Assembly: GCA_018817165.1 (NCBI GenBank)
Contig: JAHITY010000062.1
Coordinates: forward strand, 26,958-90,957
Direction: 5' to 3'
Source of the DNA: Candidatus Omnitrophota bacterium
Lineage (GTDB): Bacteria > Omnitrophota > Gorgyraeia > B26-G9
Length of the DNA: 64,000 bases
Under the pieces are notes generated by a model. It was not told the origin of the DNA and searched no databases. It worked only from the letters and a program-made list of their open reading frames with translations. Shown here piece by piece: positions 31,579 through 48,176 of this stretch. Within the stretch, counting starts at the first letter, position 1; each line of letters starts with the position of its first letter. Both the position numbers and the translations under genes were made by a program.

Positions 31579-31617
31579 GCTTTATTCTTAGTTGGATTTA
31601 AAACAGATAAACAAAAA

Positions 31618-31650
31618 GGCGAGCAGCAAAACTGCTCGCCTTTTTTTTAT
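31618..31650 (+). terminator. Strong intrinsic terminator after rpsA
   Basis: GGCGAGCAG-caaaa-CTGCTCGCC followed by TTTTTTTTATT. Confidence 0.8.
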
Positions 31651-31693
31651 TAAACTTTTTCATTCAATTAGAATTTTAAAAGTAACTTGGCTA

Positions 31694-31910
31694 CAAGATG
31701 CAGGTGAATTTTTAAGCTTTTCACAAATTTAGGTAAATACGTGTTGTATTTTTGGGGACCCGTTAGGGCACGAGGACCTGTTTGAGCTTATTCATTTAAA
31801 TTTAAGGGCGAGTTCCGCAGTGCCAGAAATACAGCGCGGATTTGCCGATCTTGATGTTTAAATCAAGAAAATTTGTGACTTGCGTAAAATTTGTCTGCAT
31901 CTTGTATACC
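31694..31910 (+). repeat. Structured ~215-nt intergenic element, copy A (paralog of 46108-46320); candidate ncRNA or MITE
   Basis: Terminal inverted repeat CAAGATGCAG...CTGCATCTTG. Internal hairpins AATAC-gtgtt-GTATT, CTTGAT-gtttaa-ATCAAG and GGGCAC...GTGCC, plus long-range pairing CACAAATTT/AAATTTGTG. More than 80% identical to copy B, with compensatory substitutions in several stems. Confidence 0.6.
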
Positions 31911-32544
31911 CCGTAAGTTGCTTTACAGGCAAAAACACATCTTTTCGCTAAGCCTGAGCCTGCATCGTGCAGGCCCAGCCGCGCGTTCTCTCTAAGGATT
32001 CCGAAAATATCTGCTAGGTCTCAGATATTTCGGACTAAATTCGAGCAGGCTGACTTGACCTCGCTAACACTCCGTAAGTCAGGCTCTCATTTAAAGCGCC
32101 GCTCAAAGAGAATTTTTGCCTATCGAGATTTTAACTTTATGAACTTTATAAGTTGATGACTGTTTTAGCTTTGTAACTCATAACTAATCATTCATAACTT
32201 CATGTTTGTGATTTTGTAGCCAACTTGTCGAAGTCGGTCCGGAATCAATCATTTCTGCTCATTCTCGTCCCGCATCGTGCGGGACTCCGAGGATGAATCT
32301 CTGATTTTGCCAGTCCTATCAAAATCAGGCTTCAAACCCGCTAAAATGATTATTCCTGCCCTCTACACAGCGTTTAGTTATTTAGCAGCTTGTATTTTTT
32401 TTTGCGCAATACGCAATACTCAATACGCTTTTGTCCTTGTGTAAATCATCTCAAGCTTGACTGTACGCAAGTGCTGCTATATTATATTAATGAGGTTTAG
32501 TGGATATTAAAAAAAATACGCTAAAAGAAAGAAAAGGGGGGATT

Positions 32545-33054
32545 TTGAGGAAATATATAAATTGTTTGATTTTTGGTTTAATCATTGGCTTGTTTAATTT
32601 TAATGCTTTTGCATTTGAGCTTGCTTCTGAGTTTGTTGATTCAGAATACGGCTATTCTATAAAGTATCCTTTGGATTGGTATTCAAAAATCAATCGCTCG
32701 GGTATGGTGCTGGCTGATATCAATACTAAAGATAATAAATCGGGTTTACAGATCAGAGTTACTCAGAGCAATCAGTCAATCGATGATTATGTGTTACGAT
32801 ACATTGATAAGTTTAAGCAGGATATGCAGGCGCAGTTAACCAATCAAGAATATATGCTGATTGATAATAAAAAAGCTTACAAAATAAGTTTTCAAGCTAA
32901 TCGCCGAGGCAAGGATTATTTGCTGTTAAGTTATATTATGGCTGATGATCAAACAGCCAGAGTTTTTATTTTTCAAGCAGGAGTTCTTTATGATCAAAGA
33001 TATGAAATTATTCCTGTGCTTGATGCAATTGCCGGTTCTTTTGAACTGAAATAG
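32545..33054 (+). CDS. Hypothetical secreted protein (possibly PsbP/DUF1795-like fold)
   Basis: The ORF opens at 32500 (GTG). A G-rich RBS (GGGGGG) followed by TTG at 32545 gives a clean signal peptide MRKYINCLIFGLIIGLFNFNAFA. Confidence 0.45.
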   Translation: MRKYINCLIFGLIIGLFNFNAFAFELASEFVDSEYGYSIKYPLDWYSKINRSGMVLADINTKDNKSGLQIRVTQSNQSIDDYVLRYIDKFKQDMQAQLTNQEYMLIDNKKAYKISFQANRRGKDYLLLSYIMADDQTARVFIFQAGVLYDQRYEIIPVLDAIAGSFELK

Positions 33055-33096: not shown

Positions 33097-33603
33097 ATGC
33101 TTAAGAAAATAGTCAGTATCGCAGTTGTCCCTTATGTGCTTTGGTTGATTTTTGCTTATCAATATCATTTTATTGACGGAGCTAATCTACTTTTTCATGA
33201 AGCAGGACATTTAGTTCTTTCATTCATGGGGCCAGTTGTTCATTTTCTCGGAGGGACAATCGGGCAATTAGTTTTTCCTACTGTTTGTATTATTAGTTTT
33301 TTAAAGAAAAATCAGAAATTTGAAGCGGCGATCTGCGGCATATGGTTTGGTGAAAATATGGTTAATATTGCTTGGTATATGGGAGATGCCCAAACCATGA
33401 TGATCCCCTTGGTCGGTGGGGGAATTCACGATTGGAATTGGCTGCTTTATCGCGCTGGTTTATTAGCGCATTGTAAAATTTTAGCAGGATTAGTGCATAT
33501 TATTGCCGCTCTGATTCTGATTGGTAGTGTGATAGTATTATTTCAGCAGTCATTTTTTACTGATTCTCAGCAGCAGGGAAATGATCCTGATATCGGTTTT
33601 TAA
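33097..33603 (+). CDS. Small polytopic membrane protein with HExxH motif (DUF3267-like putative zincin)
   Basis: FHEAGHLVLSF motif within 4-5 TM helices; 168 aa. Confidence 0.45.
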   Translation: MLKKIVSIAVVPYVLWLIFAYQYHFIDGANLLFHEAGHLVLSFMGPVVHFLGGTIGQLVFPTVCIISFLKKNQKFEAAICGIWFGENMVNIAWYMGDAQTMMIPLVGGGIHDWNWLLYRAGLLAHCKILAGLVHIIAALILIGSVIVLFQQSFFTDSQQQGNDPDIGF

Positions 33604-37002: not shown

Positions 37003-37221
37003 TGTATAATTTGGGAGATTATTGATTCGGTAAGGTTTAACGGTAACGAAGCCCGTATCAGTAACGTTAACGGTTACGGTTAAAAATAATAAATTTTAGG
37101 CCGATAGACGTGCCCTAAAACGAAACGGGCATCGTAACCTTTACCTTAACTTTTTAAAGCTGTAACTGTAAACCCGACTCTGGAATTATACACCACAGAT
37201 AGTCACAGATGTTTATTTCTA

Positions 37222-45967: not shown

Positions 45968-46107
45968 CGTATAGCGATTAGCGGATAGCGGTTAGGAGAA
46001 ATAGAAGACATCAAACCGAGGGATGAGGGACGATCGCTACGCTAGGAAGATGGACGATAAAGCAGAAAAAGACATTAGGTCTCATGGGGCCCTACGTCAT
46101 CAGGTTA

Positions 46108-47449
<1,342 letters not shown>

Positions 47450-48074: not shown

Positions 48075-48127
48075 GCAATGTGTTAAATAAATATTTGTAG
48101 ATTTAGTTGTGCGGTAAAATAATAAAT

Positions 48128-48176
48128 AGGGGAAGTTTTTAAGTTATCTTAACTTAAGACTTCTCCTGTTTTTTTT
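48128..48176 (+). terminator. Intrinsic terminator after hnoX
   Basis: Long hairpin GGGGAAGTTTTTAAGTT...AACTTAAGACTTCTCC followed by a T9 run. Confidence 0.7.

Follow-up and report, generated by a model that had tools for sequence, protein, structure and literature searches.

The window analysed here is a 64,000-nt stretch of Candidatus Omnitrophota DNA. It contains two intergenic copies, A and B, of a hairpin repeat family that we label E1. Copy A lies between an rpsA-like gene and a psbP-like open reading frame, and copy B lies in the queA-tgt spacer. The features at these two sites are as follows.

31613..31645, + strand: intrinsic terminator of the rpsA-like gene, just 5′ of copy A and outside the repeat; conserved in L030, L032 and L033
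31695..31903, + strand: E1 copy A, complete hairpin repeat AAGATGCAGG...TCTGCATCTT; covariance-model score 223 bits
31766..31787, + strand: 5′ half of the core of copy A, GGGCACGAGGACCTGTTTGAGC; one position is T or C (Y), the rest is invariant in 11 close copies
31810..31824, + strand: 3′ half of the core of copy A, GAGTTCCGCAGTGCC; its GTGCC pairs with GGCAC of the 5′ half
31849..31868, + strand: side hairpin in the 3′ arm of copy A, TCTTGATG-TTTA-AATCAAGA; helix 8 of the consensus
31916..32121, − strand: arms of the repeat family E3 with an apex of the family E2, in the same spacer as copy A; both fold better on the minus strand
46108..46318, + strand: E1 copy B, complete hairpin repeat; covariance-model score 231 bits
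46178..46199, + strand: 5′ half of the core of copy B, from the exact 30-nt core match
46223..46237, + strand: 3′ half of the core of copy B, from the alignment
46263..46281, + strand: side hairpin of copy B, CTTACTG-TTTTT-CAGTAAG

The initial annotation had described copies A and B as aligning over their full length in the same orientation, and we obtained the same alignment (218 nt, 85.3% identity, E=2e-64). An exact 30-nt core occurs twice in the window vs zero expected occurrences. The element that actually pairs is slightly shorter than had been annotated, spanning 31695-31903 in A and 46108-46318 in B. The proposed terminal inverted repeats were found in both copies, as CAAGATGCAG/CTGCATCTTG in A and as AAGATGATGG/CGATCATCTT in B (9/10). 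With its flanking bases, copy A extends over 31692-31906 with TAC/GTA at the ends, and it starts 50 nt 3′ of the rpsA terminator. Across the family, E1 is 208-234 nt long, and its terminal repeat AAGATGAT.../...ATCATCTT continues into the arms to give ~70 paired bases. No open reading frame was found within E1, and a short reading frame is not kept between A and B. Sequence and covariance-model searches detected no third copy in the window.

The tgt start codon (ATG, 46346) lies 27 nt past the end of copy B. In the list of open reading frames, tgt is extended 5′ to a TTG inside copy B (window 46289-46345), as it is in one JGI gene call (386 aa). The true start is the ATG at 46346, which is preceded by AAGGAG. 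This mis-extension indicates that E1-type repeats can cause wrong gene starts.

The predicted fold of either copy is a single long, imperfect hairpin, with free energies of −86.3 kcal/mol for A and −73.9 kcal/mol for B and z-scores against dinucleotide shuffles of −8.8 and −5.8, respectively. The RNAalifold consensus of 11 full-length copies is likewise one long hairpin with 74 pairs. Its two arms pair over nearly their full length and meet in a three-way apex, where a small CCC/GGG hairpin and a variable apical hairpin are combined with a conserved internal loop that is asymmetric; the 3′ arm carries the separate small side hairpin. This internal core, not the termini, is the best-conserved part of E1. 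The pattern used for retrieval overlapped the 5′ half of the core, so that its conservation is partly due to ascertainment; three copies found by BLAST alone also keep it except at Y. A kink-turn in the core was considered by inspection and rejected: L027, a distant copy described below, agrees with the consensus of that motif, but on the non-bulged strand the main family carries CA in place of GA.

Standard pairs occupy 97.4% of the paired cells, vs 35-52% when the partners are slid by 1-3 columns. Both sides have changed in 12 of the 74 pairs among the 11 copies (6.6±1.6 in column shuffles; 0/500 reach the observed value) and in 19 of 70 with L027 added (6.8±1.7; 0/500), counts that are inflated by the common ancestry of the copies. 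The covariation of the stems that had been put forward thus exceeds that of the shuffles. In L027, the core pairing GGCAC/GUGCC has become GGUGC/GCACC, and the side hairpin and the small hairpin are retained despite complete sequence change. The slid controls and this distant copy argue that the structure is real.

Individual stems of the initial annotation fared differently. The side hairpin had been reported to change on both strands between the copies (CTTGATG/ATCAAG in A, CTTACTG/CAGTAAG in B), and among 12 members 5 of its 8 pairs are double-changed. The long-range pairing CACAAATTT/AAATTTGTG was likewise borne out and covaries (AU:3, CG:3, UA:3). A local AATAC-loop-GTATT hairpin had also been proposed; this one found no support, the 3′ half being GGATT or GAATT in 7 of 11 copies. 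In the consensus fold, the bases of that 3′ half pair over a long range with CCAGAAATAC.

Copies A and B are real, but the 'two paralogous elements' of the initial annotation belong to a larger family. With an exact 20-mer of the core we recovered two contigs of the Omnitrophota MAG JAHITE01, and with a 19-mer eight contigs of the metagenome Ga0180007; BLAST on the retrieved contigs revealed second, more divergent copies on several of them. The search for further copies that had been recommended thus yielded at least 12 in related contigs, which brings E1 to at least 14 copies with mutual identities of 75-98% in the window and related Candidatus Omnitrophota contigs. The region of the window itself is also present in the ENA sample ERZ27247128, and the Tgt and RpsA proteins of the window are 100% identical to NCBI entries for Candidatus Omnitrophota. 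Nhmmer and covariance-model searches of the related loci (R1; 279 kb) added a single member, L027 9484-9684 (GCA_964437495.1), a distant relative of ~55-60% identity found by profile search. The other hit of the R1 search, a 54-nt AT-rich hairpin at window 48121-48174, was dismissed as spurious. Another ~12 kb of flanking sequence taken from the same genome as the window contained no more E1, and neither viral contigs (exact pattern) nor plasmids and phages (distant blastn) gave a match. As a dispersed repeat, E1 would belong to a genus-level clade of Candidatus Omnitrophota.

All copies are intergenic and adjoin unrelated genes. The proteins flanking the copies on related contigs had no match in the window, and in pairwise comparisons the similarity between copy contexts stops before the neighbouring genes. 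Of the 14 copies, approximately nine have the orientation of the local genes; about five run antisense, typically just past the terminators of convergent genes. Copy B and the copies in L011, L006 and L007 lie 27-88 nt 5′ of a start codon. The L027 relative sits in the queA-tgt spacer of a third genome, antisense to the genes. Two subfamilies can be told apart by the side hairpin, a GATG type that is copy A-like and a GCTG/ACTG type that is copy B-like; both types were seen in the genome of the window as well as in related contigs.

Close relatives keep the gene order around copies A and B, which allowed occupied and empty orthologous spacers to be compared, also for a copy in L011 (percentages are protein identities).

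queA-tgt spacer with E1, 378 nt: window, copy B
queA-tgt spacer without E1, 425 nt: L025 (Tgt 95% identical), other repeat families only
queA-tgt spacer without E1, 36 nt: L029 (84%)
rpsA to psbP-like open reading frame (32500) with E1, 922 nt: window; E1 is followed by three other repeat modules and a promoter
rpsA to psbP-like spacer without E1, 437 nt: L030 (95%)
rpsA to psbP-like spacer without E1, 277 nt in L032 and 173 nt in L033 (93%): terminator and promoter only
rubredoxin-fprA spacer with E1, 418 nt: L011
rubredoxin-fprA spacer without E1, 2 nt: L037/L038 (JAHITE01)
rubredoxin-fprA spacer without E1, 47 nt: L039

The queA-tgt spacer of L027/L028 (728 nt; Tgt 84%) holds the distant relative and hence is not empty. 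E1 was missing at three of three compared sites in some or all of the close relatives examined, and the flanking proteins of relatives with empty sites are 86-95% identical. These sites are too diverged or too filled with repeats for an exact reconstruction of the junctions. They nevertheless imply that E1 was gained or lost since closely related species split and that it is mobile now or was so recently. As judged from these sequence comparisons, E1 is not an obligatory regulator of adjacent genes.

Beside the repeat-rich spacer of copy A, the window has tandem psbP-like genes (32500-33054 and 33097-33603). L030, L032 and L033 have one such gene, which indicates a local duplication; by DNA similarity to L030 (72%), the first gene of the window is the ortholog.

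The fold of E1 is strongly biased towards one strand, the only one on which compensatory and wobble changes maintain the hairpin. On the + strand, 101 cells of the paired columns are G·U vs 3 that are A·C, and positions polymorphic with Watson-Crick pairs number 25 for G·U vs 3 for A·C. RNAalifold gave −68 kcal/mol for the + strand vs −32 kcal/mol for the independently folded reverse-complement alignment, and every copy is 7-38 kcal/mol stabler on the + strand. Since G·U and A·C pairs each arise from two different transitions, a simple mutational skew cannot give 25:3, and we infer that it is ruled out as the source of this ratio. It is suggestive, although the numbers are tiny, that the antisense copies of full length, three in all, account for every A·C cell and for the smallest strand differences. 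The proportion of G·U pairs (~12%) is commoner in RNA than in DNA hairpins, and we lean towards RNA as the propagating strand. A host RNA role, although unlikely, would also be in keeping with this proportion.

Variants shared by at least two copies preserve pairing in 20 cases and disrupt it in two. For variants private to one copy, the numbers are 20 and 17 (shared vs private: Fisher p=0.004). Private single changes away from Watson-Crick pairs comprise nine G·U, three A·C and six transversion mismatches, which is not far from the neutral expectation. Because shared variants keep pairing and private ones do so much less, the pattern points to selection that would act mainly on the lineages yielding new copies and not on each insertion site. 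We also saw five private double-compensatory changes; these are likely to stem from unsampled subfamilies or, alternatively, hint at some selection in place. The full copies analysed number 11-12 only and are phylogenetically related.

A scan and inspection by eye found neither a sigma-70-like promoter nor an intrinsic terminator on the + strand of E1. TTGAC(C/T) and TAAAAT are present in the 3′ arm with a spacing of only 4 nt, and on the minus strand CTGGCA-16-TAAAAT occurs in some apex variants only. Copy A, situated between the rpsA terminator (31613-31645) and the promoter of the next gene (32457-32485) and having no promoter of its own, would be transcribed by read-through only. Copy B and the copies in L011, L006 and L007, judged by their positions, would be within mRNA. 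Three further candidates were dropped on inspection: a sigma-54 promoter (there is a TGGCAC but no correctly spaced TTGC), a hammerhead or other ribozyme (motif and Rfam match both absent) and a retron ncRNA.

The statement that E1 has no riboswitch, 6S or T-box signature proved correct. At the gathering threshold, no Rfam 15 family covered E1, and permissive scans of A, B and L027 gave noise. The sole match in the window at that threshold, unrelated to E1, was a c-di-GMP-I riboswitch (RF01051) at 2386-2549 (37.7 bits; gathering threshold 35). Its aptamer has an 81-nt insertion in the first hairpin and lies 5′ of a type II secretion/type IV pilus-like cluster.

Target-site duplications had been named as a hallmark to look for; inspection of the flanks of 14 copies by eye revealed none that was consistent. 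TA is found on both sides of copy A only, and the other copies lack it at the same register. Most copies on related contigs are preceded by an A-rich leader ending in GAATTTTGTGA and followed by GAGTA(C/T), and GTGA precedes nine of 12 copies. These common GTGA/GAGTA flanks look like part of a longer composite unit, not like a duplication. In ~200 kb of Pfam-annotated related contigs, which represent part of each genome, we detected no transposase, HUH (Y1_Tnp) or reverse transcriptase domain; the sole recombinase domain was that of a Phage_integrase (tyrosine recombinase) gene. No parent insertion sequence with E1 ends was present in the 279 kb of related sequence.

E1 shares its spacers with other repeat families. 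E2 is a ~105-nt two-hairpin module (window 31993-32096, L005 6817-6918, L017 5902-6008) that stands alone just 5′ of a gene in L005, forms the apex of an E3 copy in the window and lies within an E1 copy in L017; in the window its minus-strand fold is slightly better. E3 (window 31916-31994 plus 32093-32121, L005 6575-6699, L025 9646-9770, L023 2610-2746) has the arms GGCAAAAACACATC.../...GAGAATTTTTGCC and an exchangeable centre, which is the short hairpin TTTTGACA elsewhere and E2 in the window. All four E3 copies are 9-15 kcal/mol stabler on the strand opposite to the window's + strand. At L017 5821-6074, E2 precisely takes the place of the E1 core. In both chimeras (E3+E2 and E1+E2), module and arms are joined in the strand sense that each favours.

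We conclude that E1 is probably (at roughly 0.7) a non-autonomous mobile hairpin repeat, MITE- or REPIN-like, which spreads or acts as a single strand. The initial annotation had left a functional structured RNA family and a MITE derived from IS ends as its two mutually exclusive options, neither of which matches the data in full. The mobile-repeat option gains from the many insertion-polymorphic copies, but the duplications were not found; the structural argument of the other option, covariation, stands and is joined by a fold on one strand. A one-strand fold together with selection at the level of lineages favours a folded single strand over the recognition of double-stranded terminal repeats. 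Propagation would need an intact + strand hairpin, and the substrate would be either ssDNA read by an HUH/Y1-type enzyme, which has been proposed for REPINs, or RNA. Once inserted, E1 copies would mostly drift, and those co-transcribed with their neighbours would bring a very stable hairpin into the mRNA. A host function would not be needed to account for the data.

Strand-specific covariation with many G·U pairs could also mean that E1 is a family of structured small RNAs with a host function in trans or in cis, its copies being selected locus by locus and dispersed by gene duplication. The nearly invariant core of close copies, the internal loops at fixed positions, the side and small hairpins that survive in L027 and the several copies 27-88 nt 5′ of a start codon are in line with such RNAs. 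However, the + strand has no associated promoter or terminator, 5/14 copies are antisense behind their neighbours' terminators, orthologous sites are empty despite 86-95% identical flanking proteins, copy-private changes disrupt pairing nearly as often as not (17 vs 20), the core can be replaced by the unrelated module E2 (L017) and an Rfam match is absent. We therefore regard small RNAs of this kind as unlikely. It is quite improbable, too, that E1 is a classical MITE of a DDE-transposase IS (e.g. IS630/Tc1), moved by double-stranded cut-and-paste, in which the covariation would reflect co-evolving subfamily termini. Terminal inverted repeats, a length of ~210 bp, intergenic dispersal with insertion polymorphism, the TA on both sides of copy A and two subfamilies with concerted differences in both species would suit this origin. 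Yet double-stranded recognition predicts neither pairing over the full length nor a G·U/A·C ratio of 101:3, other copies lack TA at the same register, and no matching ends were seen beside a transposase in the 279 kb of related sequence.

Locus-specific cis-regulatory leaders, such as a queuosine-related riboswitch of tgt or an rpsA 3′ UTR element, are suggested by the end of copy B 27 nt before the tgt start and by a preQ1-II-like match that is very weak at 16 bits (E=6.8). That score is far below the gathering threshold of 47 bits, near-identical copies stand beside unrelated genes, and tgt of close relatives has no such leader; the empty sites effectively refute this idea. A broader proposal takes E1, E2 and E3 as one undescribed modular, strand-specific hairpin system in which apical modules are swapped among arm families and copied via a folded single strand, possibly RNA (SINE-like), or by a new hairpin-recognising enzyme of Omnitrophota. 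We offer it as a very tentative idea that we think has little chance of being right.

The mobile hairpin repeat that we prefer can be set against known element classes. MITEs have terminal inverted repeats, a transposase-less core and a size below ~400 bp; those of bacteria are described as folding into long stem-loops in RNA, as frequently co-transcribed and as able to change mRNA stability, and stem-loop MITEs include ERIC/IRU in Enterobacteriaceae, Correia/CREE in Neisseria and Chunjie in Geobacter (PMC3184786). When co-transcribed, ERIC and Correia repeats are reported to bring a very stable hairpin into the mRNA. E1 has the inverted ends and the size of a MITE, its mobility is indicated by three occupied/empty comparisons and at least 14 copies, and a direct target-site duplication was not found in the flanks of 14 copies. 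Like ERIC, Correia and Chunjie, which are non-coding elements of 100-400 bp with inverted ends and a stable stem-loop, E1 occurs as many intergenic copies in either orientation that are present or absent among close relatives. Its positions at gene ends or just 5′ of genes, where MITEs are often found and co-transcribed, are also alike. E1 differs from these MITEs in having no consistent duplication (no regular TA), no sequence similarity to them, a host of a different phylum and a strong one-strand fold bias. Its best conservation lies in the internal asymmetric core and not in the termini, which would be unusual for a transposase-bound MITE. For ERIC, conservation at the RNA level was reportedly argued by Wilson and Sharp in 2006.

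REPINs are REP doublets mobilised by RAYT/TnpA-REP HUH transposases (PMC3116915, PMC8266576); their hairpins, in ssDNA or mRNA, often show compensatory changes (PMC3116915). In REP-RAYT systems, two inverted REP palindromes of 20-40 nt with a GTAG/CGTC tag are separated by a short spacer (PMC3116915; PMC3733652). E1 resembles REPINs as a non-autonomous, extragenic hairpin that would replicate as a unit, shows compensatory changes and appears to be selected as a replicating entity. However, REPINs have conserved ends ~71 bp apart, so that E1 is 2-3 times longer, and they consist of two short G+C-rich REP palindromes, which the E1 arms do not. The GTAG/CGTC tag is absent from the E1 consensus ends, and GTAG follows the right end in only two copies. 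E1 apparently reaches tens of copies vs hundreds for REPINs. Thus, E1 fits neither class as defined, having neither the duplication of a MITE nor the architecture and tag of REP elements.

Two other hairpin elements were compared with E1. Integron attC sites have R″/R′ core sites of the form RYYYAAC...GTTRRRY and stand in one-orientation cassette arrays with an adjacent intI. This class was rejected, as E1 ends in AAGATG.../...CATCTT, its sole GTTAGGG is internal and ends in G, not Y, and its copies are single, dispersed and in both orientations. PATEs derived from IS200/IS605 have subterminal hairpins but no terminal inverted repeats, a conserved 4-5-nt target on the 5′ side of their left end, no duplication, and a strand or orientation bias. 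E1 agrees with them in the lack of duplication and in the GTGA before nine of 12 copies; it differs in having true inverted repeats as ends and an orientation ratio of 9:5.

A full-text literature search on repeats and structured RNAs in Omnitrophota/Omnitrophica found nothing relevant. Members of this phylum are uncultured and little studied, and, going by this search, E1 is the first description of such a repeat there, a further family within a known kind of element and not a new class of structured RNA. In E1, a mobile repeat has evolved by compensatory changes on one strand, apparently under selection on the propagating lineage; this bears on how REPIN- and MITE-like elements replicate, favouring a single-stranded hairpin over double-stranded terminal-repeat recognition. 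For RNA discovery it is a caution that covariation by itself is insufficient to call a host RNA gene. E1 repeats enlarge intergenic spacers, also inside operons (rubredoxin-fprA) and directly 5′ of genes (tgt). They are likely to break up MAG assemblies and are usable as a strain-typing marker in this clade.

The spacers that contain E1 are mosaics of short repeat modules in varying order, as in BIMEs. Two further families, E4 (window 32242-32365, L025 9851-9974, L030) and E5 (window 37003-37182, 3′ of recG; L005, L006, L023), also form hairpins, with no clear strand preference. Degenerate tandem heptamers (window 45969-45998; E1 flanks in L006, L011 and L015; L025 9790-9830) occupy the spacers on either side of hairpin repeats, and compact empty spacers lack them. 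They include TATAGCG ATTAGCG GATAGCG GTTAGGA, GGCTGAT GGTCAAT GGTCGAT AGCTAAT and ATAATTC x5. Small dispersed repeats of cyanobacteria, with heptamer STRR repeats, were reportedly described by Elhai et al. in 2008, in Genome Res 18:1484; the window heptamers presumably resemble these STRR heptamers. Nested hairpin modules with degenerate heptamers alongside are thus common to BIMEs, cyanobacterial repeats and the E1 spacers, although organisms and sequences differ and the cyanobacterial repeats, at 21-27 nt, are much smaller than E1.

A GGACGA-rich module is, like the degenerate heptamers, often found beside E1. The purine-rich module GAGGGAYGAGGGACGAYCGC...GCTAGGAMGAKGGACGA (window 46012-46060, L006, both L017 copies) lies 50-130 nt 5′ of E1 in four copies, and its recurrence hints at either a larger composite unit or a neighbourhood that is preferred. 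Another recurring sequence, (A)ACTATATTAGGACAAGAC(A), lies directly 5′ of the fprA start codon in two genomes (L039 5975-6000; L011) and also in the E1 flanks of L013, L014, L005 and L015, in spacers where no start codon follows. In L013, TTGATA stands 17 nt before it, which gives a good sigma-70-like promoter; (A)ACTATATTAGGACAAGAC(A) may be a portable module of promoter and ribosome-binding site.
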